Virus record (IMG/VR): IMGVR_UViG_2974729571_000001
Span: 29,788 to 93,787 of that record
Strand: one strand, 5' to 3'
From: a virus
Lineage: Duplodnaviria > Caudoviricetes
Length of the DNA stretch: 64,000 nucleotides
Positions 1,603-60,178 of this stretch are shown here, in pieces (within the stretch, counting starts at the first letter, position 1; each line of letters opens with the position of its first letter). Made by a program: the position numbers and the translations under genes. The notes below the pieces were generated by a model that saw only the letters and a program-made list of their open reading frames with translations, did not search any database and was not told the origin of the DNA.

Positions 1603-1750
1603 CAAAAAGTTGATAATAGTATTGTATAATTAAACAAAATTTAGTTTCTTGTAGCGTCCCCCCATAAAGGAGTGAGTATTAACAGTAATCACACCTCTTT
1701 ACGGGGGAATGTTACAAAGACCAATTAATAATCATTTAAAAGTAATTATC

Positions 1751-8412: not shown

Positions 8413-9386
8413 AAGTAAATGCAATAGATAGATATGACATACGTAATATGTATACACATTTTATAGAGACAAGTGAAGAGGAGTACGACCTTGTGTCTCA
8501 CAACATAGTCAGATATAAATCTTTGCTTTATCGAATTAAATACTCTATTGAACAAAATAGAAATGCTGTTGAAGCCATATTTGATATATGTGTATATAAC
8601 TACTGGGAATGGAATACAGATGAGTTAGATACTAATCAAAAAATGGAGAAAGCCATAGATGAGAAGTATGTTAAATTTACGGATGTAAAACAATTAAGAT
8701 ATGGTAATCTTTATCGTAATCTAAAGCAATACTTTAGAGTGCTTCGTAAGATAAAAGATTGTGAGATAAGACAAGATGTATTAAAAAAGCGTAAGTTAAT
8801 TACAAGAGAACAATACAAAAAGTATTGTTACCTGTTCTTTGGAGAAATAGGAAGGCAAGTATTGAGGGGAAAGATTTATAAGTTTGAGAAGAAAATAGGT
8901 TGCCTTATTATAGAAAGAGTAAAAAGAACTGAATCACATGTTACTGCTGACGGTAAAGTTATTAAGCATAGAAAACGTATTAACTTTGTAGAAACTAGAA
9001 GAAATAAAGAAGAACTTATTATTAAAGGACTTACGCCTTATAATAAAAAGAAACATCTTGAAGCTATTGCAAAAGGAGAGGAATACGACGGTGTTAAATA
9101 TATATCTTATAATAATTCGGATTGGTCTTGTAGAGTTATTATGATTGACGGTGCAGTTAAGAATAGGACAGTATTTAAGTTTTGCGGTATAAATAATCAC
9201 ATGAATGTTACAAATGCTGAACTACTTGCAAAATGTCATAGTGTAGAAGATATAATAAATCTTGATACTGATATTAACAATCGTGTCTCTCTTATTTCTA
9301 AGTTTGACCCAAGTTATACTCAAAAATATATTAGAAACAATGAACAAAAACCTATCTTCAATAGAAACTATTATCGCAAGACTTGA
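8409..9386 (+). CDS. Basic protein with HU/IHF-like domain
   Basis: FFGEIGRQVLRGKIYKFEKKIGCLIIER resembles the HU/IHF core. crAss-like phages carry IHF-like genes just upstream of the tail tubular gene. Confidence 0.55.
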   Translation: MKVNAIDRYDIRNMYTHFIETSEEEYDLVSHNIVRYKSLLYRIKYSIEQNRNAVEAIFDICVYNYWEWNTDELDTNQKMEKAIDEKYVKFTDVKQLRYGNLYRNLKQYFRVLRKIKDCEIRQDVLKKRKLITREQYKKYCYLFFGEIGRQVLRGKIYKFEKKIGCLIIERVKRTESHVTADGKVIKHRKRINFVETRRNKEELIIKGLTPYNKKKHLEAIAKGEEYDGVKYISYNNSDWSCRVIMIDGAVKNRTVFKFCGINNHMNVTNAELLAKCHSVEDIINLDTDINNRVSLISKFDPSYTQKYIRNNEQKPIFNRNYYRKT

Positions 9387-10071
9387 TAATGATTTCAATA
9401 TTATGAGTAGCGATTATATACCTAGAGTTGGTGCTTGGTGTATAGATGCTATGAATGAAATGGGTATTCTTCAATATGAAGAAAAAGAAACTACTATTGA
9501 AGTTATTGATAGAGTTGCTTATTTCCCATGTTGTATGAACGCATTTAAAGTGTATGCAGACGGGTGTGAGGTTTCCCCCATAAAGAAAGGGAGCTGTCAT
9601 TGCTCTTCCGGTACTACTGAATACTTCACTCAAGACCGAGAGAAAGCTAGGGAACGAGAAAGTAAGCGTACTGTCGAGATTGACCCCGAAGGTTACGAAG
9701 GAAAGAATTACGTGTATCTTCGGGATGCTAATGCAATCCAATTAAACTTTGATACTGATATTGTTACCGTATCCTATCTTACAGTTAAGACTGTATATAG
9801 TGATACGTTTCATTGTAATATACCTGTTATTCCTAATAACGGTAAACTTATTGAAGCACTTGAATGGTTCTGTATGTGGAAGTTACTAAGTAGAGGAATT
9901 AAACATCAGGTCTATTCTTTACAAGGTTCTATGCCAGTTAATCCATATTTGTTATGGAGAGATTCTCGTGACAGAGCTAGAGCTTCTGTTATTAATGAAA
10001 ATCAAGATGCTAATGCTTATAAAGGTTGGTCGTCATTCTTTTATAATTCAACATTTAGACCTAGAGACTAA
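9340..10071 (+). CDS. Tail tubular/ring protein (P22 gp4-like, Ttub)
   Basis: Probable start ATG 9340 (MNKNLSSIETIIARLDNDF). Conserved position immediately before the muzzle gene. Confidence 0.6.
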   Translation: MNKNLSSIETIIARLDNDFNIMSSDYIPRVGAWCIDAMNEMGILQYEEKETTIEVIDRVAYFPCCMNAFKVYADGCEVSPIKKGSCHCSSGTTEYFTQDREKARERESKRTVEIDPEGYEGKNYVYLRDANAIQLNFDTDIVTVSYLTVKTVYSDTFHCNIPVIPNNGKLIEALEWFCMWKLLSRGIKHQVYSLQGSMPVNPYLLWRDSRDRARASVINENQDANAYKGWSSFFYNSTFRPRD

Positions 10072-20655: not shown

Positions 20656-23600
20656 ATGCCAAATATATTTGATGATATATCAGTAGAAAAAGCTCCACTA
20701 GACAGTGGGGCTAATTCTGTTAATATGGCTAAAGAAGCTCCTACTGTTACTAAATACAAACTTGATGTAGCTGCACAAGGCGACTTCATGTTTCGTAATC
20801 TTAGTGGTAAAGAAGTCTTTACTGGAACAGAGGAAGATTATCATTCTTTAGCTAAGTATGGTGCTGAACCTAATCGTTATCAAAGTAGAGAAGAATTAGA
20901 AACTCTTCGTGCTAAAAATCAATCAGCTTGGAAACAAGCAGGTAATGCTTTAGGTCAAACTATTGGAACAGTTATAGGAGATACTGTTGGTGGTATAGGT
21001 ATGTTAGTAGATTTAGCTACCGCTGGATTATGGGATGATAAACCGTTTAGTAATCCTATTACTAGAGCAGGTGATGCTATATCTGACTATGTTCGTGATG
21101 ATTTGTTTCCTATATATCGTGAGAATCCTGATAAAGCATTTGATATGAATGACTTTTCGGGTTGGTTCTTTAGTCAAGTTCCAAGTATTGCTAGTTTTTT
21201 ATCTTTAATGGTTCCGGGTGCTTTATTAACTAAAGGAGTTGGAGCTGTTGGTAAAGGTGTTGCAGCATTAGGACGTAGTAGTTCTAAAGTAAGTCGTGCA
21301 ATGAATTGGGCAAAGAAGGCTACTAAATTAGATAATGTATATCGTGCTAATAGATTAAAGATATTAGTTAATGACGGTATTACAGCTATTGGTATGCGTT
21401 TAGGTGAGAATTATCAAGAAGCTCGTGGTGTTGCAGAACAGATAGAAGGTGAAGCATTGTCTCTATTTACTGGAATGTCTGACGAAGAGTTTCAGAATTG
21501 GTTAGATAATAATCCCGATATTGCAAATGAGACTAAAGGTAGAACTAAAGAAGAAGCCGCTCTTATAGTTGCAGATAAGGCAGCTATGCGTAACTTTGGT
21601 TATAACGCAGGTAACGTATTCTTTGATTTCATGCAGTTACGTGCTGTTAATAAAGCAATAGGACAAGTCAATCGTGCTATTACTCCACGTATTCGTTATT
21701 CACAGAATCAAGCTCTTGATAGAATAGCTTCTACTGGAATTGAATCTACTAGTCAAACACTTGGACAGGCAGCTAAAGGAACTATTAAAGATTTCGCAGG
21801 AAAGATAAATAGACTTATTAATTCTAGTGAGATTCTTTTGTTATCTGAATTATCAGAAGGTATTGAAGAAGCAATAAACTACGTAGGTCAAGAAGAAGGT
21901 ACTTTATACGGTCGTTATTTATTAGGTCAAGCTGGACAATATAATGGTGCTGTTTCTATGGATAGAATAGAGAAGTACTTACAGAATCCTCAATTATATA
22001 ATGCTGCACTTTGGGGAGTTATTGGCGGTATTACTTTTGGCGGTACTATGTCAGCCATTAATAATCGTAAAGGTGGTAATGTAGAAGAGGAACAACGTAT
22101 TGCTGAAATAAATGGTCGTGAACAGGTATTCAATGAGTATGCTCGTCAGATGCAGATTATTGATAATGGTGAAAATCCATATCAAATAGAACGTGATGCT
22201 AATGGTAATCCTATTACTTATTTAGATGACGGTACTGTTAGTCAAGACCCAACAGTTGGTACTACTCGTTATAGTAAGGTTAGTCCCGAAGAACAAGAAG
22301 ATTTACGTGCTGCTGCTAAAGAGAAGTTTACTACTACTCTTACTTTAAATGCTATTCGTTCAGGTAATTATGAACTACTTGAAGATTATATTGAAGACCC
22401 TAGACTAAAGAAGAAACTAGTTGATTCAGGTCTTGTAGATGATGCTGAATACGATAGAGATACGCAAGAATTAAAGAAAACTATGCGTACTGTTCTTGAT
22501 AGATACGTTAATTATTCTACTGCATTACGAAGTGCTAATATTGATGATGCTTTACTAGATGTTGCTATATCAGAGAATATAGTTAATGCACAAGAAGCAG
22601 ACTTATTAAATAAACGAGTAGAAAGACTTAATACTATTCAATCTCAATTAGAGAATAGCATACCGGCTATTAATGAAGTTCTTGACCCAATGGCTAAGAA
22701 TCGTATGCAATTAGGTATATTAGAACAGTATCGTAGAGAAGTAATGTCTGCTTATAATAGTCTAAAGAATAGTAAAAATCCTTTAGATAGAGCACAAGCT
22801 AGTCAATATCTTGATTTATCACGAGTAATCGAATCTAAGGTTACAGACTTACGAAGAGGTTTAAATCCTATGGAAAGTTTGTTCCTAGATAATGTTCGTA
22901 GTGTAGAGAATATTGCATTAGGAATAGAAGGTAGCGAAGAACAGAATAACTTAATCAAGAAACAAATAGAAGAACTTGATGAAAATGATGTGGCTCTGTT
23001 TAAACAGGCAGGTAAAGACTTTAATCTTGGTACTCTTGCTAAACAAGTTCGTAATATTAATTCAGAGTATATGGATAATATGGGACAGATACTTCTTGAT
23101 GAAATTCGTAGAGATAATTATCGTTCTCGTATTATTACTACTAATGAACAAGCTAAGGAATTTGAAGATACTTGTAAGAAAGAATTAGAAGATGCAGCTA
23201 AGAATCTAGTTAAGTCAGCAAAGAAGAATCTTAATGACTTTGTTAATATGGCTAATGAAGAAGAGCTTGGTAATCTTGAGAAAGCACTAGATAATGCGTT
23301 TACTGATGAAGAAAGTCAGAATACTAGCAATAAGAGTTTATCTAATGCTGTTAGTATTTTAACTAATTCAGAGAATGGTAAGAAAGATATAGCGTCTTTA
23401 AGAGAAGCTATTACTAAGAGAAGAAATAGTCTTGCTGCACAAAGTCAGGCACAGCAACAGAATGGGAATAATCAGCGACAAGACTCCTCTACGGGGGAAG
23501 CGAGGAGCGAAGCGACGAGGCAAGAAGAACCAGAGGTTAAGCCTATTCCAAAACCTAAACCAAAGACTGCTAAAGAGAAGAAGTTAAAAGAGACATTAGA

Positions 23601-26735: not shown

Positions 26736-26798
26736 AAAGTCCGGCAGAGAGCCTTAGAATGAGCCATTTTAAGCGCATCTGCCGGACTTTTATATTTT
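26736..26798 (+). terminator. 13-bp inverted repeat / probable terminator
   Basis: AAAGTCCGGCAGA (26736-48) and TCTGCCGGACTTT (26778-90), followed by TATATTTT. Confidence 0.55.
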
Positions 26799-26980: not shown

Positions 26981-29900
26981 ATGAGTTGTACTCCTAGTAA
27001 TCCTAAATTAGATAAGCTATTAGAGCTTACTAATAATGATGTTAGAAAATCTACTGAATACCTTGCTACTATCGAAGACAATAGTTTTCGTGATTGGTAT
27101 AAAGAAAAGACTGGTAGAGATTTTAATGATGAGAATATTGATACTAATACTGTTAATGCTATAATAGCATATAATAACAGAGAGACTATCAATACTAAAG
27201 ATTATGTTCAGAACGTTCGTACTTCACGGACTGGTGTATTTGGTAATGACATAGCGAAAGAAGACCACGCTATTAATATTCTTGCTACTATTTATTTAAA
27301 GAGTCAAGGAAGTATTCGTAAAGCTCTTGCTAATAAAAAACGTAAGGGTGAAAGCGAAGTAATAAAGGATAAAGCCGGTAATGAGTTAAGTCCTCAATCC
27401 GCTATAAAGCTGACTATGATTACTTATCTTAATAGACATCTGAAAGAGAATGATAAAAAACTTACTCAGGAACAAAAGGCTTATGTAGGTACTATTATTC
27501 GTAATCTTTACGATGGTGGTAATTATAATCGTAATGAGTTATTTGATATAGTAATTAACTCACCGGAAGTAGTTAGTCTTAGCAAAGAATTTGGCATAGA
27601 TACTAATGAAGACTATGAAGCTAGCGATGATGTTAAAGAAGATAGTGAACAGAACTCTCGTCAAGATGACCAAGAAACTATTGCAGCTCTTCGTGCTGAT
27701 TGGTCTGAATTATCTGACCAACGAAAAGATATAGATAAAAATGTTAGCAAAGAAGTAAAAGAATGGTTTGCTCGTTTACCTAAAACAAATAGTAATAGTT
27801 TTATAAATGAACAACCTGATACTTCTAATAATACTTATTCAGGCATGGCTGAAAGTGCTACTTTTTCTAGTTCTTTTAAAGCTATTAATAACTATGGTAA
27901 TTTCTCTAGTGTTGAAGCTATGGTAGAAAGTTTCCATACTATTGCTGCAAGATTTAAAGAAGTATCTCATTTAGAATATGCTGCACGTTTACTAGAAGAC
28001 GAAGCTAATGTTCAAATGAGAAATAAGATATTTACTCAACTAAAACAATCTATTTGGGAACGTAATGAAGTAGTTTATAGTCAAGACGGTTCTAATGTGG
28101 TTACTAAGAATCGTAATACTTTTCCTAAACTTAATCTACAAAACAAAATACTTAATAGTTTCGATTCACTTATTCACAATCCTTCTATTATGGCTAATGA
28201 TATTGCCGTATTAGACGAACTTAAAAACAGATTATCTACACTAAAAAATTCTAACACAAATGAAATCCAAGAAATTACGGAGCAAATTGCTGCAATTTTT
28301 AATAAGTATAACTTCGGCATCAATAGACAGGGTGTTGTTAACTACGTTCGTAACTTCGGTGATAACCAACTTTCTAATATCTCTTCTATTGTCGATGATT
28401 TGCTAGAGTTCAATAAAGTAGTAGGTAAGGCGACTAATCTATTAAAGATAGATAATGAAGCACAACGTATCTATTATGCAAGTGAATATGCTAAAACTAA
28501 AGAGAACGAAGAATATGTGGTAGTTCCTTTTGATAAATCTCAACTACAATACAAAGGTGGTTATGCTAATAATATAGCCAATCGTATATCTAATAGATTT
28601 AAAGATTATCAGATAGTAGATTCTGAATTTAATAGTATTAATGCAGAGAACAATCTAGTTAGTGATATTTTAAAGAACAACTATATAAGTAAGTTCTTTG
28701 AAAGAATTAACGATAATCGTTATAATGATAATCCTGTTAGTAATACCGAACTACGTGATTACTTAGTTAAATTTGCTAATATTCCTCAATACAGATATAG
28801 TAATATTCTTATTGAGAAAACTTTGTCTAATGGAAAGATAGTCCCAGGTTTACTTCGTCTTACAGATACTGGTTATGAACTAACTGAATATTATCGTGAA
28901 TTTGGCGCACAACTATATAATGGAGTTAGTAACAAAGTAACAGGAAAGGCTAAATCTTATAAAGATATTAATGCTCTTGAATGGGATATTATTACGCTTA
29001 ATGAATACGCTAATAATGGTGACAATTATGAGATGACTAAAGGAGTTAAGAAATCTAAGTTCTTTACTCAAACACCTTCTGATGCACCTAAGACTTTCGT
29101 ATTTAATAGTTATAAGTTAGATTATACTGGACTATTTAATGCTAACGGCTCTATTAATCGTGGACATCCTATATATGTAGCTTATGCTAATATTTATGCT
29201 AAAGAACTTGCAGAAATGACGCAAGCTATTAACTTCTTATTTGAGACAACTGTTGAGAATGGAGTAGTAACTATCGTATCTGATGAAAATGGTAAACCTA
29301 AGATAAAAGAAGAGTTTAAAGATTTACGTAAATCTGAAGCTAGACTTAACTATCATTATCGTAAAGGTATTCTTGATTCAAATGGTGTTCCTACTGGTAA
29401 TGTATTTAAGTTTAGAAGTCTACTTATTGATAAAGTTAAGAACCTTAATAAGTATAATAGTGAGACAGCTAAAACGGTAGATATGAATTGGCTATTTGAA
29501 GGAGGTGATGTATTCTCACTCCTTTATGGGGGAAAGAATAGTGAAATATCATTGATACAAGACGAGAATGGAGAATATAATATTAGACTTACTGGTGAAC
29601 TTCGTAATTCAGTTTATAATTATATAGATAATTATATTAATTATAGAATACAAGAAGCTGTTGCTAAATACAGTTCTAATAAAGAGTTTGTAGATAGATA
29701 TAAGAACGCTAGTCAAGAATCATTTAATGCTTTTATTGCAGAAATGGTACTTAACTATGAGATTCAATATAACAATCTTAATGATATGTTCTTTGGAGAT
29801 GAAGCATATTATAAAGATTCTCGTGATACAATTAAACGTAATAAAGAATATCAAGCCGGAGGATTAGCTTATGCAGGTTATGACTTATACAATGTACAGA

Positions 29901-39622: not shown

Positions 39623-39654
39623 CTAACTACTTAATATTACAACTCATGTAGAAA

Positions 39655-39691
39655 GCCGGATTGCTTGTGAAAGTAGTCCGGCTTATTGTTT
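39655..39691 (+). terminator. Intrinsic terminator of the late module (GTGA loop)
   Basis: GCCGGATTGCTT-GTGA-AAGTAGTCCGGC followed by TTATTGTTT. Confidence 0.8.
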
Positions 39692-39715
39692 ATATCGAAA
39701 TAATTACTACCTTTG
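39685..39715 (+). promoter_or_regulatory. Bacteroidota-type promoter facing an ORF-less region
   Basis: ATTG-N19-TACCTTTG. Confidence 0.6.
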
Positions 39716-39721
39716 CAGTGA

Positions 39722-40070
39722 TTAAGTACCTACCGTCTCGGACTGTTGTACGGGATTTAGTATTTGCTATCTGACTAACTAGATTAGTTGCGTGTAGTGT
39801 GGAGAGCTAGGGAACTCGATTAGTCTTAGTACTTATAAGTATTATTTCATTTAGGCAGTGTCTCCGCCCTAGTGCAAAACCTCGGACGATAAATAGAAAC
39901 AAAGCTACAAGGATTAGTAGAATGATTGTCAATAGAGATTGATTTAGCTTCACTACCCGAAAAAGAGCCGAATACTATTTACTCCGTCTATGACCTTACT
40001 ATATCCAAAAAGTTCCCAAATGTTCTATCTAACGAAGAACATCTCCATGAACACTATCCCCAGTGCCGCT
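39722..40070 (+). ncRNA. Candidate structured non-coding RNA (about 350 nt)
   Basis: No ORF; upstream promoter; five nested long-range helices between 39739-39816 and 40011-40068, plus local hairpins. Confidence 0.4.
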
Positions 40071-40268
40071 AGTATTATTGTTTGAAATACTATTATCAAT
40101 ATTAACTTCACTATATCCCGCTAGCCTAACGGCTAGCTTTCTTCCCCCATAAAGGAGCAGGTTTGCTGATAATTCCACTCCTTTATGGGGGATTTAGCGA
40201 GCTTGCGAGCGTAGGCAAGTCCAGCAATATAATTATCCCTAGTACGTTGGTTTTATCCAAGTACAGTT

Positions 40269-40312
40269 TAAAAAAAAGAACTATCAACAGTATTGCTACT
40301 ATTAATAGTTCT
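40269..40312 (-). terminator. Intrinsic terminator ending the minus-strand module (GCAA loop)
   Basis: Minus strand AGAACUAUUAAUAGUA-GCAA-UACUGUUGAUAGUUCU followed by a U-run. Confidence 0.85.
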
Positions 40313-40316
40313 AAGT

Positions 40317-40499
40317 TCATTTACTTTCTTTCATATCTTTCTTAGCTCTTTTGTATCCTTTCATATAACCTTCTACATAGGCTTTAGTACATAGATTTGA
40401 TTGTATTGGAGTACAAGGTCTATAAATATAATTCTTACAAGCTCTACTAAATCCATTAGATTGATAGGCTTTTACTTTAACGCTTATTCTTTTTGTCAT
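40317..40499 (-). CDS. Small basic hypothetical protein
   Basis: Start MTKRISV at 40499; ends just before the terminator. Confidence 0.55.
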   Translation of the reverse strand: MTKRISVKVKAYQSNGFSRACKNYIYRPCTPIQSNLCTKAYVEGYMKGYKRAKKDMKESK

Positions 40500-40505
40500 A
40501 GTATT

Positions 40506-40545
40506 ATAAAATAAGAGTACCAGTATTACTACTAGCACTCTTATT
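40506..40545 (-). terminator. Terminator/attenuator hairpin (GUAA loop)
   Basis: Minus strand AAUAAGAGUGCUAGUA-GUAA-UACUGGUACUCUUAUU followed by UUAU. Confidence 0.65.
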
Positions 40546-44118: not shown

Positions 44119-44892
44119 TTACTTAATTATTAATGATGTATTACTTTCTTGTTTAGCAATAGTAAGGTCAGCATCCATACTCAAATTAGCTGCAATAATA
44201 GACTTACTAGTACAAGACTTAAATTCTACCTTATGAGGATTTTGTCCAATCCATTGAGCAAGATTAAAGTTAGTAACATTTGCAAGTTCTGATAGACGAA
44301 TATGAATTGATATTTCAGTATCAATAGAGAACACATCGTCAACAGTAACATCTACAAATGAAGATTGTTCAGATTCCTGCTCCTCTATGGGGGAACTTTC
44401 AGCTTTCATGTGAGCACTGATAATACGAGATAGATACTCAATACTAAGACTTTCCTTAATTTCAGTACTTGCAAGATATTCAGTAACTATATCCATAAAG
44501 TGTCTGATAATGTCGGCAATACGAACATCGTCTAACTTAGTAACAGTAGTATTACGAGAATAGACTTTATAAGTACTACCTTCGATTACTTTGTTACCGG
44601 ATTTACCAGTAGAACCAAACATAAGAACCGCTTCAAGAACCGCATCTTTAAGACGTTCAAGAGTATTATTTCTTGTTTTCTTAATTTGGTTAACACGAGC
44701 AACTTCGTCACTACATTCTTTAACGTCACACTGATAACGTTTAATTACTTGAAGATAATCTCCAATCTTGTCTTTAAGATTATCTTCTGTAATACCTAGT
44801 TTAGCAACAATTTCTTCTGTTGCTTCACCTTCTTCGAGTTGCAAGATAATATCCTGCAACTCTGCTTTAATACTAAATAGACTACTTCCCAT
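44119..44892 (-). CDS. Siphovirus Gp157-like protein
   Basis: SLFSI...L-EGE N-terminus and coiled coil E--R----K----N--ERLK. Start MGSSLF at 44892. Confidence 0.7.
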   Translation of the reverse strand: MGSSLFSIKAELQDIILQLEEGEATEEIVAKLGITEDNLKDKIGDYLQVIKRYQCDVKECSDEVARVNQIKKTRNNTLERLKDAVLEAVLMFGSTGKSGNKVIEGSTYKVYSRNTTVTKLDDVRIADIIRHFMDIVTEYLASTEIKESLSIEYLSRIISAHMKAESSPIEEQESEQSSFVDVTVDDVFSIDTEISIHIRLSELANVTNFNLAQWIGQNPHKVEFKSCTSKSIIAANLSMDADLTIAKQESNTSLIIK

Positions 44893-47163: not shown

Positions 47164-48379
47164 GTATTTTTATAACATTTCCATGTGAGGGAACTTCCTT
47201 GACACCTGACCTACATCTAAATTCAGCAAACGCTATCTTTCCAATAAACTTGTCTTTATTAATAAGATAACTTTGACGAGTAGAAGCATCACCAACTGGC
47301 ATACATTCAAATGTTTCACCATTAATATCATTACGAAGAACAAACTTACTAAAGTTAGGTCGTTTAGCTCCTTCGGGAATAATATCTAGGATTTCAAATT
47401 TACCATCTAATATTGGTTTACTTTTGTACATAGTAGAATTACGTTTACCAAACTGATATGTAGCATAAGGATTTCGGAGAATAGCTCCCTCGAACTTAGC
47501 TTCAACAAAGATGTCTCGATATTTAATAATATCTTCATCTCCATTTACATTATCATAAGTATGAATAAGAACGAAACGATTCTTATTATTCATGTGATAA
47601 TCAAGAATAGCTTTAGCATTAACGTAATTAGGCATCTTAAACTTGCCAAATTCTGACTTCAATAATGATATACGATTAGTTTGAATCATATCATCAATAG
47701 CTAAATCATAACACCAAAATTGAAGAAAACGATTATACGGACTTTTAAGATTCTCGGCAGCACTTAGAATATCATTTAGTTCAAGACCTGGAATATATAA
47801 TTCTCCGTCTAATACTAGATTATCTTCTAACATACGATTGAATAGCTTGTCTGTAATAACATCATCAAGCAATATATTCTCCAATACAGGACATTTATAT
47901 TCAAGTCCTTTACGACTATGAAATACAAGACCTTTAGTTTTAAAGAATCCTTCACCACGCATAACAGCTGATATATTACAACGAACACCGTTAATCTTAA
48001 TTTGAGCTAACAAGTTTTGTTCGTTATTATATTCATATATCTTAGCTAGCATAGGAAGAACAAATCCTTCATTATTAGTATTGTATTTAGGAAGATACAT
48101 ATCAAGATAATGTTTCAAAGCCTCAATATTAGGTATTTCTTGAGGAGCTGCATCATATAATTCAGACAGTTCCATACCTCCTTCTCTACGCTTAGCTGCG
48201 ACAATAGTTTTCCATTCTTTCTCAACACCTCTAGGTGGAACATATTCAGATGTAGTCCCTTCTTTACCAACAATACCATACTTTAGTATAATCTTGTGTC
48301 CTAGTATTTCAGCTGACCAAAAGATTGGTTTACCTTGTGCATTACGTTTATAAAGAATAATACTTTTCGATTCGCTCAT
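47114..48379 (-). CDS. lig: ATP-dependent DNA ligase with N-terminal WGR-like domain
   Basis: PMLA, motif I QIKINGVRC, VLDGELY, FEGAILR, KR...K-K and a C-terminal OB fold. Confidence 0.9.
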   Translation of the reverse strand: MSESKSIILYKRNAQGKPIFWSAEILGHKIILKYGIVGKEGTTSEYVPPRGVEKEWKTIVAAKRREGGMELSELYDAAPQEIPNIEALKHYLDMYLPKYNTNNEGFVLPMLAKIYEYNNEQNLLAQIKINGVRCNISAVMRGEGFFKTKGLVFHSRKGLEYKCPVLENILLDDVITDKLFNRMLEDNLVLDGELYIPGLELNDILSAAENLKSPYNRFLQFWCYDLAIDDMIQTNRISLLKSEFGKFKMPNYVNAKAILDYHMNNKNRFVLIHTYDNVNGDEDIIKYRDIFVEAKFEGAILRNPYATYQFGKRNSTMYKSKPILDGKFEILDIIPEGAKRPNFSKFVLRNDINGETFECMPVGDASTRQSYLINKDKFIGKIAFAEFRCRSGVKEVPSHGNVIKILDDESTRLPNNIEEES

Positions 48380-48858
48380 AGTTCTTCAATTTTATATTTG
48401 TTAGGTTGTTCACGCATAAGACCAATAGCAACTTCTCTATCAATAATCATAGACTTATTAGTTTCAATAACAATAATCCTAACTTTAGGATTAGGAGAGG
48501 GAGATGTAACAGATTTCCGCTCCTTTATGGGGGAAGGTTTGGTAATCTGTTTACTAGTCTTATTAGTTCCCTTTTTCTTTTCGTAAACAATAGGAGGATT
48601 AACTTCTTCATATTTAAGATTAGCTTCATGAATCTTTTCAAGAGATTCTTTATCGTAACCTATATATATAAGAGCAGCCATTATCCATCTATATCTAAAA
48701 TGAATAGTTTGAATATAAGGATAATTAGGTAAATCTAATTCATGAAGATAACTAGCAATAGTATCGGAAGTACCGTTAACTTTAAGATTATGTTGAATCA
48801 TCCTTATATCAGAAGCATCTAACTGATAACTAAACGGATTTACATTGTTTAACTTCAT
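48376..48858 (-). CDS. Hypothetical protein
   Basis: 160-aa ORF in the replication operon. Confidence 0.65.
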   Translation of the reverse strand: MKLNNVNPFSYQLDASDIRMIQHNLKVNGTSDTIASYLHELDLPNYPYIQTIHFRYRWIMAALIYIGYDKESLEKIHEANLKYEEVNPPIVYEKKKGTNKTSKQITKPSPIKERKSVTSPSPNPKVRIIVIETNKSMIIDREVAIGLMREQPNKYKIEEL

Positions 48859-49375
48859 TTGCTGTAAGTCTTACAATTATATACTTTTTAGGTTTACCTA
48901 TTCTCGCATGATAGAACTTGAAACACTTTAGATAATCAGTACTTTCAGTCCACTGTATAAAGTTTCCTTTAGATACAGATGTATTAGTTTCATAATTAAA
49001 CTCTCTTGGAATCTTATGACTACTATACATGTCTTTATCTAAGTAATTCTTAATGATAGCTAAGTGTTCAGGATTATCAAACTCAAAGTTACCATAAATT
49101 TTTATCTTAGAAAAGTCAATTGGTGTACCGTCAGAAAGAGAGAGACGAATTAAAATATCAGGATTATCAACCATTTGTTGTCTGACATCATCAAGATACT
49201 TCTCTTCTTCATCTGTTAAAGGATACATAAAATAATAGCTATAAACATTTCCGCTATTACCGAAACTGTTTATAGCTATTCTCTTTAATGGAGCAAATGA
49301 ATTAAAATCAATTACTCTACGTTCTTCTTGTGCCTTTGGAAATGACACATATTCTTCTTCTCTACTCATATTCAA
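48830..49375 (-). CDS. Hypothetical protein
   Basis: 181-aa ORF in the replication operon. Confidence 0.7.
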   Translation of the reverse strand: MNMSREEEYVSFPKAQEERRVIDFNSFAPLKRIAINSFGNSGNVYSYYFMYPLTDEEEKYLDDVRQQMVDNPDILIRLSLSDGTPIDFSKIKIYGNFEFDNPEHLAIIKNYLDKDMYSSHKIPREFNYETNTSVSKGNFIQWTESTDYLKCFKFYHARIGKPKKYIIVRLTANEVKQCKSV

Positions 49376-50507: not shown

Positions 50508-50538
50508 TAAAATAAGCCTAGCTTTACACTAGGCTTAT
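50508..50538 (-). terminator. Terminator hairpin after the SSB gene
   Basis: ATAAGCCTAG-7 nt-CTAGGCTTAT with a U-run on the minus strand. Confidence 0.7.
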
Positions 50539-50568: not shown

Positions 50569-51609
50569 TTAGAATGGAAGTCCACCATTGTCTTCTGAAT
50601 CAGGAGCAAATGCAGAACCTTCAGTTGGATTAAAAGTACCTGCCGCACCAAAGTTTGGCATACCACCCATATTAGGTTGAACAATTCCTGCACCCATTGC
50701 AATACCACCAATACCTGGGGCAGCTGCAAGATTAGGAGCTTTCTTTTGTTTTGATTGAACACCGTCCATAGGAGCAATACGTTCTTTAGTAATATCAAAC
50801 ATAAGACTAGGTTCTTTAAAATGAGTAGCATCCAACATGAACTTCTCTTCAAAGATACCTTGTCCGACAATGTTCGGGAATACTAAGTCGCCTTCTTCTG
50901 AACCTTGACCGGAGAAAGCCCAATCACCTTTGTTCTTGTAGTAACGATTAAGTCTGAACCAAAACTGTCTTTGGTTGCCTACTTTATCAAGTAATGCAGA
51001 CTTACCATTTTCACCACCTGTTTCAACAAGTTTAACTACATTGTCAAACAGAACTCCCCATGCCTTGATAACATCTTCTACTTCAACTGGTTCATACTGA
51101 CCATTATCATCATAGTCAACATAACCAAGTTCAAGCATTTCAGATTCTTCGTCAGTCATTTCACGACCTTTGAATACAACTACATCAAGGAAGTGTTTTA
51201 TCCAAGCAAAGTCCATATTAATAAACTTCTCTTTAGCACCGCCAGGAATATAGTCAACATTACTTTCATAAGCCCAGAATGTCTTACTAGCAACACGAAC
51301 ATCAGCAGGATTAGTATGAAGAGAAGTAGCTTCAATAACAAGCTGTGGAACAGCTTTTCCTGCAAATGCCGGACGCATATTGCTTTCTTCTTTCATAGTT
51401 ACCCAAGCAACACGAGCATGAAGATGACCAACAAATAACCAAAGATTATTAATAGCATCTTTGTGAGAGAACTTCTTACGAGAAGTAGTTCTTGTCTCAT
51501 TACTAATACCTCTACGACGCTTTTTAGGAGCAGTAGTTGCAGCACTATTAGCTGGTTGATTTACTACTGATTCATCTACTTTGGCAGTTCCTTCTTTTTG
51601 AGTACTCAT
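50569..51609 (-). CDS. Putative single-stranded DNA-binding protein
   Basis: Gly/Pro-rich linker and acidic DSEDNGGLPF C-terminus, an SSB-tail signature. Start MSTQKEG at 51609. Confidence 0.6.
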   Translation of the reverse strand: MSTQKEGTAKVDESVVNQPANSAATTAPKKRRRGISNETRTTSRKKFSHKDAINNLWLFVGHLHARVAWVTMKEESNMRPAFAGKAVPQLVIEATSLHTNPADVRVASKTFWAYESNVDYIPGGAKEKFINMDFAWIKHFLDVVVFKGREMTDEESEMLELGYVDYDDNGQYEPVEVEDVIKAWGVLFDNVVKLVETGGENGKSALLDKVGNQRQFWFRLNRYYKNKGDWAFSGQGSEEGDLVFPNIVGQGIFEEKFMLDATHFKEPSLMFDITKERIAPMDGVQSKQKKAPNLAAAPGIGGIAMGAGIVQPNMGGMPNFGAAGTFNPTEGSAFAPDSEDNGGLPF

Positions 51610-51684
51610 AAAAATTGTTTTTATAAAGATTAATACTAGCAATAACAAGTTGTACAGGCTTGCTATTGTTTATTGCAAAGTTTC

Positions 51685-51716: not shown

Positions 51717-51754
51717 AAAAAAGAGCTAAATTCAATTAAGAATTTAGCTCTTTA
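51717..51754. terminator. Bidirectional intrinsic terminator
   Basis: AAAAGAGCTAAATTC-AATTAA-GAATTTAGCTCTTTT. Confidence 0.85.
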
Positions 51755-51780: not shown

Positions 51781-52536
51781 TTATTTAGCTGACTGACGAA
51801 CAGAAGGTTCTCCATCAGATTGGAAGACAATCTTGTAAGCACTAACTTCAACAGTTTCTTTTTCGTCACCGATAACTCTACCAGTTTCAACAGCAACAGA
51901 GAAAGGTTCGTTAAGTTTAACCTCGAATACACGGTTGATTTTCTCTGCATCTTCACCGAGATTCTCTTTCAGTTCATTCCACATACTGGAATCAGAGAAA
52001 GTCAACGGCAAACCAACACCATTAAGATTGGAAGAAGTAGAAGTACGTGCACCAGAGTAAGCACGAGTAACAGGAGCATAATCATCAATAGTGATTTCTT
52101 CTACTGACTTGCCAAGTTCCTCTGCAATCTTCTCTTTGTTCAGTTCAAAAGCAGCAGCCTTTTGTTCAGCTGTCATACGAACACCAACAAGTTTAACTTT
52201 ACCGTCTTTCTCGAACAAAGGTACACCTTTACAGATACCATATTTACCGAAGTTCTGAATAAGAATAGCACGAGCAGCTTCTGTACCAAACTCAACATTG
52301 TTCTCTTCGCACCATGCCATTACTTCGGCATCACGTTCAGCAATAGATGCATCAATATCAGCAATATTACTAACAAACTGAACTGTATCGCCAGGAACAA
52401 GACCCATGATACGAGTAACCGCACCTGTAAGACTAAATTTAGCTTTAGTACTATTAGCTGTCAATGTAGGTTCGTTACTAGATTGCATTGCTCTCTTACC
52501 ACTCTGTACTGCGGAAAATCCAAATTGAAGTCCCAT
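51781..52536 (-). CDS. Hypothetical protein, probably highly expressed
   Basis: 251 aa with strong optimal-codon bias (CGT, GGT, TTC, AAC) and its own terminator. Confidence 0.75.
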   Translation of the reverse strand: MGLQFGFSAVQSGKRAMQSSNEPTLTANSTKAKFSLTGAVTRIMGLVPGDTVQFVSNIADIDASIAERDAEVMAWCEENNVEFGTEAARAILIQNFGKYGICKGVPLFEKDGKVKLVGVRMTAEQKAAAFELNKEKIAEELGKSVEEITIDDYAPVTRAYSGARTSTSSNLNGVGLPLTFSDSSMWNELKENLGEDAEKINRVFEVKLNEPFSVAVETGRVIGDEKETVEVSAYKIVFQSDGEPSVRQSAK

Positions 52537-53646: not shown

Positions 53647-55122
53647 TTATTCTCCTATTATGAAATCAATTTCATTATCTTTAACTATTTCATAGTCTTT
53701 TCCTCCTTTCGTCTCTATTAACTTCTTCTCTTCGTTCGTACCTCGACAATATATCTTATATATAATGTTAGGTACAGAACTAAAAGATAGATTAGGTATT
53801 CGATATTTTAAGTCTCGTATGGAGCTACAAAGAGGTGACGTGAAAATTACAACGTCTACAACTCCTTTAAAGCTCGTATCAATAGAATTATTTGCCGACA
53901 ATACTTTCATATAGTCGTCATTAAACAGTTCCAAATTTCGCGTTCTTTGGGCTTGAGCTTTTATGATTACAGGCTGTCCGACTTTAGCTCCTGATTTATA
54001 TACTTTAGGTTTTCCGTTTTTGTCATAAGCCTGTATTCCTTCCATATCGTTATGATAGTTTCCGCAATAATCATACTGTAATATACTTATTCCAGTTTGG
54101 AATATCTCACCATTAGTCATAATAGATTTGCCCTCATACTTTATATTAGCATTTAGATATTCTGTTACTTTACTGGCAAATACTCCATTTTTTGAAATAA
54201 TTAGTATTCTCTTGCCTATATTTTCCTTAACTATATCAAGTATAGCATCTAGCTTAACAATATTATCAGTTATTATCTTAGTTCTTTCTCTGATAATATT
54301 ATAAGTTTGATTAACTCTCTCAATTAAAGAACTAGGATTATATAGTTCGTCTATCTTACGACACATAGCATCAGTCATATCCATTTTAGCTGACCAACCA
54401 TTACTTTCCGCTACTTGTAATCTACAAGTTTCAGCTGCAATATTTAATCTAGGATTACCAGTACGACATTCTTCTAACTTATCAAAACTACCAAATATAG
54501 TAACACTTTCATTAATATATTGGCTACATCTATCATAATAGATTCTATCAGCATCAGTTAGGACAACACCCTTTTGGTACTCCTTTATGGGGGAATGAAT
54601 AGAACGATTAATTAAGTGAGCATAATTAATTTCATATACTTTAGGAGCATACTTATACATAAGTACAGCATTATCAGCAACACTATCAATAGCATTAGTA
54701 GCAAGTAGCTTAAACTTAAAATAGTTACCACTATATTTCTCTGCAATCTTTCTGAACTTCTTTACATTAATAGTAATAAGTACATCTTTATGACTATTAG
54801 AACTCGGTTTATATGGAGAACGTTCAACATAATCACGAGTAAGTATAAGACATCGCTTATCAGTTATTAATTGTTTATGAATCTCTTTAAATTCAGAAGT
54901 ATTATCGAGATAATAATTAATGTTAGCTCTATCTTCCATAGTCTCTGTTATAATAAGAGACGTTAAATCAGGAGTTTTAGCTACCATTTTATCTAACACC
55001 ATTGTAACAAAGTTCATTACACTTAGTGGTTCAGATAGAATAACACTACCCACGCCTTTGTTAGCAGACCATTTATTAGCAGCTTCATTATAAATATCAG
55101 TTACATCATTCATTTTAATCAA
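53647..55122 (-). CDS. SF2 helicase-like protein with degenerate ATPase motifs
   Basis: SF2-like framework (W---KG-G, KRILI, C-terminal IY--Y-RGTNEE) but no GKT or DExH. Confidence 0.55.
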   Translation of the reverse strand: MIKMNDVTDIYNEAANKWSANKGVGSVILSEPLSVMNFVTMVLDKMVAKTPDLTSLIITETMEDRANINYYLDNTSEFKEIHKQLITDKRCLILTRDYVERSPYKPSSNSHKDVLITINVKKFRKIAEKYSGNYFKFKLLATNAIDSVADNAVLMYKYAPKVYEINYAHLINRSIHSPIKEYQKGVVLTDADRIYYDRCSQYINESVTIFGSFDKLEECRTGNPRLNIAAETCRLQVAESNGWSAKMDMTDAMCRKIDELYNPSSLIERVNQTYNIIRERTKIITDNIVKLDAILDIVKENIGKRILIISKNGVFASKVTEYLNANIKYEGKSIMTNGEIFQTGISILQYDYCGNYHNDMEGIQAYDKNGKPKVYKSGAKVGQPVIIKAQAQRTRNLELFNDDYMKVLSANNSIDTSFKGVVDVVIFTSPLCSSIRDLKYRIPNLSFSSVPNIIYKIYCRGTNEEKKLIETKGGKDYEIVKDNEIDFIIGE

Positions 55123-57310
55123 ATAAAGTATTTCTCATTCCATAGTATTTCTTAACTAAACGTTTACCTTTACCTTTATTATTACGACTTTGTTCTATTG
55201 GTTCTATAATAGCCATAGCTTCATTATAATAATATAAGTAATTAACATTTAATTCAGATATATCAGTATCATCAACAGTATTACATATAGAAACACGTTG
55301 ACCTGCACATAGAGAACTCTTTTTAACTTGTTCTTCATTATGCTCATTCCAGCCCATACTCTCGACTTTCATCAATGTTCCCCCCGTAGAGGAAATGTAA
55401 AACCTTGTATTCCTCTGTACCACATCTGTTCTTATCTTTCCGTCTACGACATGAGTAAACTCTAGTCTATACTTATGATTAACATTTTGAGTACGACAGA
55501 AATCAAGAATAGATTTAGCATTTCTAAGAGTTTCCATTACAGGAGTTCCATTAATAAAGTATTCAGTAACACATTTAGCTACAATAGGAGAATTATATCC
55601 TTTAGATAAATCCTCTAAGAACATCTTAGGATTCATTCTACCTTTGAACTTACTACTTCCACCACGTTTAACAGTAAGATAACTATTAACGCCTTCGGTT
55701 ACATACTTTGTATAATATGTAAATTCTAGCTCTAACCCTAGATGTTTCTCCCACCAATGACAAATATCATCAGCAGTTTGTTCTAATTCTCTAGGAACAA
55801 TAGTTACAATACCATCTGTATTAGCACTTATAACATGAATACCTGCAAGTTCAAGTTTCTCTATTAACATCAATAAAAATAACTGACCGTTAATAGTAAC
55901 TTGATACATTGCTTTCTTGTCACATAAGAAAGACTTTTCACTTCCCATTTTACCAAATATACCAGCATTTGCTACAATCTTTAGACAAGCAGCAGCAGTA
56001 GCATGTTTATCTCTCTCCATAACATCAAGAGATTTATCTTTGGCTAAATGTTTATGTTCTAGTCGTTCATCAACAATAGTATCAGCTATACGAAACCATG
56101 CTTTAGGAATAAGGTGTTTCTGACATACTTTAAGACTACGTATCATATTAGGATAATAACTTGCAACATCTCTGTCAACAATAATACTATCAGAATTTTC
56201 AACATATACGGCTGGAATCTCATTTGAATGTAGACCCCCAGTTGCGATGGTATAGGACGTGCCCATAAAGGTAAATTCTCGGTCAAATTCGCCCTTTTCT
56301 CCCTTCAAGGTAAGGGAACGTATGCCTGACAAAATATCGTTCAATTCAGGGGTCGAAAATGCGATTTTATCTGACAAGATTTCGGAAACCAAGATTTTCC
56401 TACGTATTGTCTTAGTATCAATAAAGGCTTTAGGATGTAGACCAGTGAACTTACTATATAGTTTAACAATAACTTTATCAGCTATTGTACTTCTACTAGC
56501 AGAATACACATCTACTTTATATTCCTCACTAATACGATACCTTAGAAGAACTTCTTCCTGATTCATCCTGATTAACTCGGCAACAATATATACATCATTG
56601 TCGTTATAATCAGCCATTTCATTAAGATATTCTTTAGGAATAAATCGCTCAAATACATTACGATAATGAATGTTAAGTTCTCTATCAGTCATTCCCTTTG
56701 CTTCGGGTAATCTCTCGTGATAATAATGTCTATCTAAATCACCAATAGGTGGCATAGTATACTCTTTTAGATTATACCATTTAATATTAATAGAAGTCTG
56801 TTTAAGACTTTTATGATAATGGTCTAACCTAAATATTTGGAATAAATCTAAATCTCTAAATGCAACGTTATTACGAAGTATAAGAGAAGTGAAGTTATCA
56901 GTCCAAAGAGTATCATTATTAGAACTACGAATAACTCTCTGTGATGTTTCATATAAGAATGTAATTAACTTACTAGGTTTATCAAATTGATTATAATACA
57001 TAAGTAATGCACTTAACATTAAGCGGTCGTACTTCCGATTATTATATCCGAAATAATCTGCTTTCTGTTGTAACCAATATAATAAACTGAATAAATCAGT
57101 ATCATCATCTTCATATAAAACAAAACGTTTCTTAGGTATTGTTTCTAAACGTTGTTTTATCTCTGCAATAGTAAGTTTATCAACAAGAGGAATAGCTTTT
57201 CCATCATTATCGACACAATCACTAAATATTTTGAGATAACTACGTAAATCAACAAATACTACCGAGAAGTAATTTCTAGTTACTTCGACATCATAACACA
57301 TAGAACTCAT
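55115..57310 (-). CDS. polB: Family B DNA polymerase with 3'-5' exonuclease
   Basis: Exonuclease motifs YDVE, GYNNRKYD, YNDNDV; polymerase motifs DVASYYPN, KIVANAGIFG, ANTDG. Confidence 0.9.
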   Translation of the reverse strand: MSSMCYDVEVTRNYFSVVFVDLRSYLKIFSDCVDNDGKAIPLVDKLTIAEIKQRLETIPKKRFVLYEDDDTDLFSLLYWLQQKADYFGYNNRKYDRLMLSALLMYYNQFDKPSKLITFLYETSQRVIRSSNNDTLWTDNFTSLILRNNVAFRDLDLFQIFRLDHYHKSLKQTSINIKWYNLKEYTMPPIGDLDRHYYHERLPEAKGMTDRELNIHYRNVFERFIPKEYLNEMADYNDNDVYIVAELIRMNQEEVLLRYRISEEYKVDVYSASRSTIADKVIVKLYSKFTGLHPKAFIDTKTIRRKILVSEILSDKIAFSTPELNDILSGIRSLTLKGEKGEFDREFTFMGTSYTIATGGLHSNEIPAVYVENSDSIIVDRDVASYYPNMIRSLKVCQKHLIPKAWFRIADTIVDERLEHKHLAKDKSLDVMERDKHATAAACLKIVANAGIFGKMGSEKSFLCDKKAMYQVTINGQLFLLMLIEKLELAGIHVISANTDGIVTIVPRELEQTADDICHWWEKHLGLELEFTYYTKYVTEGVNSYLTVKRGGSSKFKGRMNPKMFLEDLSKGYNSPIVAKCVTEYFINGTPVMETLRNAKSILDFCRTQNVNHKYRLEFTHVVDGKIRTDVVQRNTRFYISSTGGTLMKVESMGWNEHNEEQVKKSSLCAGQRVSICNTVDDTDISELNVNYLYYYNEAMAIIEPIEQSRNNKGKGKRLVKKYYGMRNTLFD

Positions 57311-59140: not shown

Positions 59141-59392
59141 TTAAGGTTTGACTATTTGGTTAACACTATACTGTACGCAACACGTTCCTTTACGGGGGAA
59201 TATCTTATATTTATCAGTATTCATAATTCTAGGTAATGGAGTAATTTCACAACATCTATCACTATGAACATCTACGATAATACAATGATAAGCATTAACA
59301 CATAAATCATGAGATATAACAGCTTTAAGTCCTTCAAAATATACATCAAAAGTACTATCAGGATTAACACATTGTTTTAAATCTACAACCAT
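59141..59392 (-). CDS. Small Cys-containing hypothetical protein
   Basis: Start MVVDLKQ at 59392. Confidence 0.6.
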   Translation of the reverse strand: MVVDLKQCVNPDSTFDVYFEGLKAVISHDLCVNAYHCIIVDVHSDRCCEITPLPRIMNTDKYKIFPRKGTCCVQYSVNQIVKP

Positions 59393-59393
59393 A

Positions 59394-59705
59394 TTAATTA
59401 GCTTTAGTTTTATATATTTCGTATAACTTACTAAATTCATCAGAGGGCATACAAACAATAGGAACATTAGTATGCATTTGTTCTTTAGGAACAATACAGT
59501 TTCTTGCAGTAACTATTCTATCATCTTCAACAAACATTGTTTCAAGAACTAGACAATTACCAGCATTTAATATTTCCTTACACTTAGGACAGATATAAAT
59601 AGTATCCGTACCAAACACAAGAAGCTCATCGCCACAAACTAGACATTTGCCAGTCGTGACAATGAGCTTACCATTATCTTGTTTAAACTCATTTAGCTTG
59701 GACAT
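59394..59705 (-). CDS. Zinc-finger protein
   Basis: CLVCG...CPKC. Start MSKLNEF at 59705. Confidence 0.65.
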   Translation of the reverse strand: MSKLNEFKQDNGKLIVTTGKCLVCGDELLVFGTDTIYICPKCKEILNAGNCLVLETMFVEDDRIVTARNCIVPKEQMHTNVPIVCMPSDEFSKLYEIYKTKAN

Positions 59706-59857: not shown

Positions 59858-60178
59858 TTATTTAATAGGAGCATCTGACCGCTCCGCTTCGCTCCGCTTA
59901 TTCCCCCGTAGAGGAGTTGTGAATTGTTTAACCTTTTGCTTAATTTCATCTATAATAGCTTTATTCTTATCAATACTATCGTTACTATAAAGATTATAAC
60001 TATGTGTTTCATCAATATTTCTATTAATATCAAGAACAAATAGATACATACTAATATAAGAAGTATTGTTAAGATTACAATTAGTATAAAGGTCACTAGA
60101 GAGTTTAGTACTATACAACAGACTAAGCTGTATTTTCTGTAACTCTCTAAACAATTTAGTAAATTCTTTCTTATTCAT
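59858..60178 (-). CDS. Hypothetical protein
   Basis: 106 aa. The C-terminal tail (PLRGNKRSEAERS) is dictated by the overlapping DNA motif and hairpin. Confidence 0.6.
   Translation of the reverse strand: MNKKEFTKLFRELQKIQLSLLYSTKLSSDLYTNCNLNNTSYISMYLFVLDINRNIDETHSYNLYSNDSIDKNKAIIDEIKQKVKQFTTPLRGNKRSEAERSDAPIK

Follow-up and report, generated by a model that had tools for sequence, protein, structure and literature searches.

Among described DNA signals, the bacterial DNA uptake sequences come closest in pattern to the motif reported here, M (TTCCCCCRTARAGGRG), an asymmetric 16-nt word that recurs on both strands of a genome assigned to the crAss-like phages and that forms a tight inverted pair where two gene blocks converge; Chi sites are also near to M in polarity, and M is a member of neither family. 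The DNA analysed is a 64,000-nt stretch (the window) of the IMG/VR virus record IMGVR_UViG_2974729571_000001 (Duplodnaviria; Caudoviricetes), bases 29788-93787 of a whole genome of 93,787 bp, and positions are those of the window unless the genome is stated. Like M, the uptake sequences (in Pasteurellaceae called uptake signal sequences, USS, and in Neisseriaceae DNA uptake sequences, DUS) are over-represented asymmetric oligonucleotides with an extended consensus, which occur in both orientations, lie mostly in open reading frames (ORFs), form some intergenic inverted pairs and differ between lineages as dialects (PMC1939737, in the available portion of its text; PMC3630211). Their even spacing was reported by Karlin, as cited in the same portion of PMC1939737. 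The Chi sites of RecBCD and AddAB share with M their polarity, strand specificity, over-representation and scattered placement through genes. There is about one Chi site every few kb, and its target is an enzyme moving along DNA from an end. Asymmetric polar sites, some of them inside genes, are likewise found in the Ter/Tus and replication terminator protein (RTP) systems, and plasmid R6K and the B. subtilis terminus carry a close inverted site pair. Phage N4 has three hairpin promoters, all upstream of early genes. As far as the available part of PMC4496689 goes, the N4 virion RNA polymerase resembles the crAss-like system in being a giant enzyme carried in the virion that needs unwound DNA, with short inverted repeats as signals. 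Finally, T5, phiKMV-like phages and tf have nick sites which, like M, follow an asymmetric consensus (7-19 nt) spread over the phage genome, and whose function is given as unknown in the accessible part of PMC3517423.

The phage in the window is assigned to the crAss-like Bacteroides phages, and its DNA between 38000 and 42000 is 94.2% identical to that of Bacteroides phage crAss002 (host B. xylanisolvens) across 90% of its length. To the left of the pair the plus strand carries tail and cargo protein genes and two giant RNA-polymerase-like ORFs (2019 and 4213 aa), and to the right the minus strand carries a replication block (dUTPase, DUF932, Gp157/Gam-like protein, ligase, primase, RecT, helicases and DNA polymerase). 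The non-coding convergence gap between them runs from the stop of the 4213-aa plus-strand ORF at 39622 to the last minus-strand ORF, at 40317-40538. It was in this zone, where the plus and minus modules meet, that the original prediction had placed an inverted motif pair with a 20-nt spacer (40142-57 and 40178-92), and both the location and the geometry were borne out by a repeat finder, which gave a perfect inverted repeat with 15-nt arms (40143-40157 and 40178-40192), 100% complementary and 20 nt apart. Each arm is one copy of M. From 40120 to 40220 the order is GCTAGCC-TAAC-GGCTAGC, TTTC, TTCCCCCATAAAGGAG, the 20-nt spacer, CTCCTTTATGGGGGAT, TTA and GCGAGC-TT-GCGAGC, and the parts are as follows:

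40120..40137, plus strand: left flank, GCTAGCC-TAAC-GGCTAGC, a 7-bp stem with a 4-nt loop, then TTTCTT; also a direct doublet of GCTAGC
40142..40157, plus strand: M copy, left arm of the tight pair, TTCCCCCATAAAGGAG; 32.3 bits
40158..40177, no strand: spacer or loop, 20 nt
40178..40193, minus strand: M copy, right arm of the tight pair, ATCCCCCATAAAGGAG on the minus strand; 30.6 bits
40197..40210, minus strand: right flank, GCGAGC-TT-GCGAGC, which is a GCTCGC doublet upstream of the minus-strand M copy

The length of the spacer, whose conservation had been proposed as a check, proved to be conserved in related viral contigs, being 20 nt in 11 of 12 distinct variants and 19 nt in the remaining one, and its sequence drifts, with up to about 8 of the 20 letters altered. 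The arms are nearly invariant among the same variants, in which we counted three changes, each in a single arm and none compensated. A mini-hairpin had also been claimed outside each arm. The left flank does have one (the 7-bp stem), while the right flank folds weakly (a 6-bp stem with an 8-nt loop as RNA, 3 bp as DNA) and has instead as its conserved trait the direct repeat GCGAGC-TT-GCGAGC (40197-40210), a type of doublet that also precedes the M copies at 63327 (minus), 59901 (plus) and 23484 (minus). In relatives, the left flank changes from GCTAGCC..GGCTAGC to GCTCGCC..GGCTCGC; because both halves change alike and thereby break 2 of the 7 pairs, it is the doublet, and not the hairpin, that is conserved there. 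The element of about 100 bp is thus a two-fold symmetric pair of units, each composed of a doublet and an M copy, and not a set of three independent hairpins. The second inverted pair that had been noticed at 1657-1709 exists, with its copies at 1657-1672 (plus) and 1694-1709 (minus) and a 21-nt spacer, although its arms are imperfect and differ at 4 of 16 positions. The tight pair of the convergence gap is present in crAss002 too, at 64738/64772.

The arms of the tight pair are two of many. A profile scan detected 32 copies of M in the 93.8-kb genome, 24 of them in the window (13 on the plus and 11 on the minus strand), and none in 10 shuffled sequences, whereas the 13-mer CCCCATAAAGGAG, allowing up to 2 mismatches, was found 20 times in the window against 0.5 expected and a maximum of 2 in 100 shuffles. 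The same scan gave 32 copies in crAss002, at places matching those in the genome of the window's phage. With the pair accounting for 2 of 32 copies genome-wide, the idea of a special hub at the convergence point had to be given up, and nothing at the pair distinguishes it as a packaging hub. Crass-like viral contigs of about 92-97 kb each hold the 16-mer in many copies, while in 185,579 bacterial and archaeal genomes it gave scattered single matches in many taxa (about 150 stored stretches), which by a rough estimate made without a computed expectation is about chance level, and no clustering among Bacteroides was seen in that set.

The arrangement of the copies on the two strands was compared in six Intestiviridae genomes from five genera (the window's phage, crAss002, Rudgehvirus jaberico, p-crAssphage, cr3_1 and cr271_1). 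Their smallest same-strand gaps between copies were 2006, 2007, 2759, 1909, 3485 and 1247 nt, minima that were reached by 2, 0, 0, 0, 58 and 177 of 20,000 random placements of the same numbers of sites. Mean same-strand gaps were about 5.4-7.8 kb in the four genomes with values. Copies on opposite strands may sit as close as 20 nt, and neighbours less than 1 kb apart were inverted in 30 of 30 cases (5/5, 6/6, 6/6, 7/7, 1/1 and 5/5 by genome). Orientation alternates in 21 of the 23 neighbour steps between genome positions 31444 and 93112; nevertheless, a quasi-periodic series of M carried by each strand on its own, at a rate of roughly one copy per 5-7 kb, is a better description than plain alternation.

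Both orientations of M are present in both gene blocks. Fourteen of the 20 13-mer matches lie within ORFs, nine in sense and five in antisense to the host ORF, and six are intergenic. Sense copies are translated as S-P-I-(K/E)-x in 8 of 9 cases, and the letters of M that vary among them are first and second codon positions, the third positions being fixed, which indicates that the DNA or RNA word, rather than the peptide, is under selection. Over five genomes, sense and antisense copies numbered 53 and 73, a slight antisense preference that was not significant (p = 0.09). M is therefore a nucleic-acid signal kept by selection, whose orientation matters and whose distribution reflects selection for coverage of each strand rather than for proximity to genes.

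These placements bear on the possibility that M is the start site of the phage's giant RNA polymerase on unwound or single-stranded DNA, where it would make transcripts or primers, with the tight pairs acting as N4-like hairpin promoters. M is laid out as a C-rich block, an AT-rich block and a purine block, resembling the promoters of single-polypeptide phage RNA polymerases, and a length of 16-26 nt with lineage dialects fits a polymerase-specific promoter. The copy at 1657 is 36 nt upstream of a plus-strand gene, and in crAss002 the minus-strand arm is 123 nt upstream of gp34. The available portion of the phi14:2 preprint also counts in favour, since in vitro the crAss-like polymerase of that phage accepts as template only DNA that is single-stranded or denatured, its promoters being described as unknown; however, the early transcripts made by this polymerase are reported there to be without a detectable common upstream motif. 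The orientation of M is, moreover, independent of gene direction in the five-genome count given above, about two thirds of the copies are within ORFs, including the middle of 12.6-kb genes, 4 of the 7 intergenic copies of the window point against the neighbouring genes, and the phage has a DnaG-type primase of its own. In contrast to the N4 promoters, M is present in about 30 copies with no relation to gene direction. We consider a role as a polymerase start site unlikely.

M might also mark site-specific single-strand nicks like those of T5, phiKMV and tf, made here on both strands and priming strand-displacement synthesis or recombination. Strand specificity is inherent in a nick, a DNA ligase and HNH endonucleases are among the phage's gene products, and the nicked phages have scattered asymmetric consensus sites of 7-19 nt, including some inside genes (PMC3517423, in the part available). 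In the three groups covered by that part of the source, however, all nicks are on one strand, whereas M is on both (13 plus and 11 minus in the window), and two opposite-strand nicks 35 nt apart at the tight pairs would nearly cut the genome. This explanation seems to us decidedly unlikely.

Each of the Intestiviridae genomes studied has its own version of M, subject to the strand rule described above. The top over-represented long words of the others belong to the motif family of M, the dialects being CCCCYGTARAGGAG in Rudgehvirus jaberico, CCCCGTRGAGGATGGA in p-crAssphage (32 copies, with about 10 further semi-conserved bases upstream), TCCCCCGTARAGGAA in cr3_1 (26 copies) and AGCTCCCCCGTAGAAGA in cr271_1 (15 copies). 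The copy in the primase gene (49663) is at distance 0 in both Rudgehvirus jaberico and p-crAssphage, and that in the helicase gene (54580) is at distances 0 and 2 in the comparison with the same two phages, while the primase and helicase proteins are only 28-62% identical among the three genera that share these positions. Dialects and shared positions mark M as old and as co-evolving with the phage lineage, which favours a reader encoded by the phage over a host factor. The convergence gap holds a single copy in cr3_1 and cr271_1, and in p-crAssphage and Rudgehvirus a pair 94-96 bp apart lies about 1 kb from the gap. Beyond this family, crAss001 (Steigviridae, MH675552) has an unrelated 9-mer, CTCCAGAAG, with 27 copies on both strands against 1.7 expected; its same-strand copies come no nearer to each other than 1537 nt (a minimum reached by 35 of 20,000 random placements), and its close pairs are inverted in 4 of 4 cases, so that the strand rule may extend across the whole order. 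As a separate observation, two of the close inverted pairs of p-crAssphage (BK010471), at 28077-28171 and 95745-95863, are 450-550 bp from the RepL-annotated gp43 and gp88; in the window's phage, no RepL-like gene turned up close to the pairs.

Copies of M are gained and lost by point mutation and not by insertion: a copy present at crAss002 44338 and decayed at genome 49771 differs by substitutions only, without an indel. This speaks against M being the relic of a small mobile palindromic element (of the MITE, REP or RPE type) that inserts in frame. Such an origin would find some agreement in the extra GC-rich DNA and partial downstream partner of some copies (seven have an upstream GC-rich doublet of the GCTCGC-N2-6-GCTCGC type or a small GC hairpin), and in-frame SPIKE-type peptides recall the Rickettsia palindromic elements. 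However, point mutations and no indel distinguish the orthologous 'empty' site, different genera have copies at identical codons, and a mobile element would not generate same-strand exclusion; we find this explanation barely credible.

Since M is a nucleic-acid signal, depends on orientation and covers each strand, we tentatively favour its being a polar 'self' tag read by a phage-encoded, direction-dependent DNA-tracking enzyme, an interpretation that we rate as possible, at something short of even chances. The reader would be an enzyme travelling along one strand in one direction, for example a helicase-nuclease or another translocase, and the logic of the tag would combine the polarity of Chi with the length and the dialects of the DNA uptake sequences. 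From any start and in either direction, such an enzyme would meet a correctly oriented tag within a few kb, and a tag of 16-26 nt would have sufficient length not to occur in the host chromosome. The palindrome at the convergence point would then be a plus tag and a minus tag sharing one of the few non-coding gaps, and the fixed 20-nt spacing and mirror-image flanks could mean that two readers bound there are in contact, or that the convergent terminators enclose a hairpin extruded by the palindrome. A candidate reading machine is formed by the putative RecD/Pif1-like helicase encoded in the window together with the PD-(D/E)XK exonuclease predicted in crAss002.

Several results weigh against the polar tag. 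A Gam-like inhibitor of host nucleases is also encoded, with which a protection from host RecBCD or AddAB would be partly redundant. The gain in conservation is modest, 29 of 496 positions differing in M between the window's phage and crAss002 against 557 of 6692 in its flanks (Fisher p = 0.05). These two phages are close relatives with some sites shared by descent, which leaves the set of six genomes short of full independence. There is also an imbalance between the strands: of the two series, the one antisense to the capsid genes is complete and higher-scoring, its counterpart is sparse or lacking within the capsid block, and in cr271_1 the copies are split 11 to 4, none of which a simple two-way protection model predicts. 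The base composition of intervals bounded by plus/minus copies did not differ from that of minus/plus intervals in the six genomes. The nearest known systems also diverge from a tag of this kind: uptake sequences work in either orientation, according to the accessible portions of the sources named at the outset, whereas M is orientation-dependent, as its same-strand exclusion indicates, and Chi is 5-8 nt long and read by host enzymes, in contrast to the 16-26 nt of M. Other differences are that uptake sequences are 9-12 nt long and serve DNA uptake by competent bacteria, whereas the carrier of M is a lytic phage, and that Chi is oriented with replication, whereas M is specific to phage lineages, absent from host genomes and interleaved in both orientations.

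The folding of the tight pair was evaluated separately. The 131 nt between 40100 and 40230, which form three hairpins as RNA, gave z-scores of -5.67 (plus) and -5.10 (minus), with none of 200 shuffles as good, and the central hairpin as DNA has a dG of about -16 kcal/mol on either strand; the palindrome is thus predicted to be capable of a strong hairpin or cruciform structure. The window has four places with perfect inverted repeats (arms of 13 nt or more, loops of 3-60 nt), whereas 100 Markov shuffles averaged 0.25. The three others (arms 13-14 nt, loops 6-29 nt) are at 26736-26790, between the two giant RNA-polymerase-like ORFs, at 49234-49280, and at 51720-51753, the last of which has a terminator-like look and lies between ORFs 50569-51648 and 51781-52536. 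A pattern scan for terminator-like hairpins returned the left flank of the element (40120-37, plus strand) and two further sites:

39653..39684, plus strand: terminator-like hairpin, 14 pairs and then ATTGTTTATA, directly after the 4213-aa RNA-polymerase-like ORF
40277..40312, minus strand: terminator-like hairpin, then T8, at the end of the minus-strand gene block

Because these hairpins lie on both sides of it, the palindrome is placed between convergent terminators. It could itself be a plain bidirectional terminator or RNA hairpin, to which the dispersed half-sites would be irrelevant: it stands between convergent gene blocks, has strong hairpin potential on both strands, and the other perfect hairpins of the window are likewise at gene ends. 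However, the central hairpin has no U-tract on either strand, being followed by ATTTAGCG on the plus and AAGAAAGC on the minus strand, while canonical terminator-like hairpins with a stem and a U-tract already flank it at 40120-37 and 40312-277; in addition, its arms vary singly and without compensation, and a terminator leaves the 30 other copies and the strand rule unexplained. A plain terminator is in our opinion improbable. We also considered and rejected long-range RNA duplexes as the main explanation of M, the arms changing without compensation and the excess of transitions being unremarkable: copies vary mostly by A<->G and C<->T changes (24 of 29 differences), and transitions account for about 66% of everything that differs between these phages.

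Cumulative GC skew, one of the checks proposed for an origin or terminus at the pair, has its maximum at genome 69734 (window 39947), 200 bp left of the pair, and its minimum at genome 2722. The minimum falls inside a divergent non-coding gap outside the window (genome 2204-3022) with 21-25% GC, three 21-nt iterons TCCTAAGTTCATTAYTAATAG and other repeats, and because the skew minimum, AT-rich DNA and iterons all lie there, the divergent gap is the better candidate and likely the origin and early-promoter region. The claim of a bidirectional origin at the pair therefore failed, and the tight-pair element is unlikely to be one; the 30 nt adjoining each arm have 50-57% GC and are not AT-rich as an iteron-type origin requires. 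Words related to the repeats of the divergent gap (TATTAATAGTTCTAAGTTCATT) recur at window 40297-40325.

The claim of a terminus fared partly better, since a skew maximum is expected at a terminus and one lies beside the pair, but the switch in gene direction coincides with this maximum and confounds it. On this view the pair would be a replication terminus or fork trap made of opposed polar sites of the Tus or RTP type, or else an origin or packaging site. The termini of plasmid R6K and B. subtilis are built of two opposed asymmetric sites, and the pair has this inverted polar layout, with a conserved spacer length, within 200 bp of the skew maximum. The skew switch is, however, the gene-direction switch and not independent of it, a single copy is present in the convergence gap of cr3_1 and cr271_1, and among the ORFs neighbouring the pair no initiator or Tus-like terminus gene was found with Pfam. 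Moreover, Ter sites form two opposed groups around the terminus, whereas the orientations of M alternate genome-wide without grouping on either side, and such interleaved sites would block forks everywhere. A terminus, origin or packaging site at the pair is in our judgement highly improbable.

Returning to the polar tag, a wider form of it may be proposed, in which the Crassvirales share a 'grammar': a per-strand, quasi-periodic lattice of a lineage-specific polar tag of 9-26 nt, running through genes and read by a phage enzyme. The tags could be either start sites for strand-displacement replication primed by nicks or by RNA polymerase, or Chi-like self-marks that spare phage DNA during the destruction of host DNA. 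We advance this generalisation with considerable doubt, as a possibility; if true, either version would be a mode of genome organisation undescribed for any virus. A signal of about 30 copies under a strict strand rule, retained within essential genes in the face of coding pressure, points to a DNA transaction that is central to these phages and has gone unnoticed, and the M family is present in p-crAssphage, the most abundant human gut virus, and in its cultured relatives. The giant virion RNA polymerases of crAss-like phages have no known promoters. The motif also provides a concrete handle, since an M oligonucleotide can serve as bait and the positions predict nicks, RNA starts or footprints, and its dialect can be used as a lineage marker.

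Literature searches for the M strings and their complements returned no paper about phages, the matching papers having other subjects, and nothing relevant was found on a crAssphage origin of replication with an inverted repeat. The available text of the crAss002 paper, the Crassvirales review and the phi14:2 preprint mentions no such motif, and that of the review is also without mention of promoter, origin of replication, terminator or GC skew. Within the limits of this literature we treat M as undescribed in print.

The M copies of the window outside the convergence gap are the following:

1657..1672, plus strand: M copy, left arm of the second pair, with an ORF start (1709) 36 nt downstream; 30.5 bits
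1694..1709, minus strand: M copy, right arm of the second pair, TTCCCCCGTAAAGAGG; 25.3 bits
5751..5766, plus strand: M copy at the 3' end of ORF 5458-5769; 27.5 bits
7437..7452, minus strand: intergenic M copy; 33.8 bits
9573..9588, plus strand: degenerate M copy in ORF 9262-10071; 22.7 bits
14804..14819, minus strand: M copy inside the 1805-aa ORF, antisense; 32.3 bits
15746..15761, plus strand: degenerate M copy in ORF 15488-17866; 21.5 bits
20448..20463, plus strand: M copy in ORF 17884-20652; 30.9 bits
23484..23499, minus strand: M copy in the 2019-aa RNA-polymerase-like ORF, antisense, preceded by a GC-rich doublet; 29.4 bits
25797..25812, plus strand: M copy in the 2019-aa ORF, with the hairpin GCGGC-TGAC-GCCGC ahead of it; 30.1 bits
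29519..29534, minus strand: M copy in the 4213-aa ORF, antisense; 32.7 bits
34588..34603, plus strand: M copy in the 4213-aa ORF, sense; 30.5 bits
43237..43252, plus strand: weak M copy in the DUF932 gene; 14.2 bits, the crAss002 orthologue being weaker still
44380..44395, minus strand: M copy in the Gp157/Gam-like gene, sense; 31.9 bits
46628..46643, plus strand: intergenic M copy; 33.8 bits
48520..48535, minus strand: M copy in ORF 48376-48858, sense; 33.8 bits
49663..49678, plus strand: antisense M copy in the primase gene, giving the peptide YPLRGN; codon position shared by three genera
54580..54595, minus strand: sense M copy in the helicase gene 53647-55122; location shared by three genera
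55379..55394, plus strand: degenerate M copy in the DNA polymerase gene, antisense; 21.5 bits
59185..59200, minus strand: M copy in ORF 59141-59494, sense; 30.1 bits
59901..59916, plus strand: antisense M copy in ORF 59858-60178, with the doublet GCTCCGC-TTC-GCTCCGC ahead of it; 29.5 bits
63327..63342, minus strand: intergenic M copy, preceded by GCTCGC-AA-GCTCGC; 30.9 bits

Contigs from two RNA runs with a crAss002-like phage span the single copies at 34588, 43237, 44378, 46628 and 48518, as RNA or as contaminating DNA; among the contig pieces listed for both runs, ends fall on either side of 40085-40327, from which no conclusion was drawn. Strand-specific RNA-seq of crAss002 co-cultures is described in the preprint 10.1101/2024.11.17.624012. 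The product of 7720-8412, annotated as an 'IHF subunit' in crAss002 and relatives, was rejected as a reader of M, because its Pfam match is CrAss_Ring_2 (tail ring protein 2, E = 2.4e-44), which makes a DNA-bending factor unlikely.

The non-coding DNA from the polymerase-gene terminator to the palindrome (39690-40085) is 96.7% identical to crAss002, against about 92.5% in the surrounding block, and includes a small hydrophobic minus-strand ORF (39807-39953, 48 aa) with 98.6% identity and no indels. A structured RNA at 39690-40118 was considered and rejected, the fold z-scores being 0.24 and 0.02 and Rfam giving no match; over the whole window, Rfam covariance models at gathering score gave 0 matches, and a search for tRNA and tmRNA found none. 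Beside the palindrome, between window 40085 and 40103, crAss002 carries a 254-bp insertion with gp34, and two of its HNH endonuclease genes (gp58 and gp61) are missing from the window's phage, at 50514/50535 and 52566/52607. Lastly, the GC-rich doublets upstream of two antisense copies (23500-23525 and 59875-59900) encode a near-identical peptide, RSEA(T/E)R, in two unrelated proteins.

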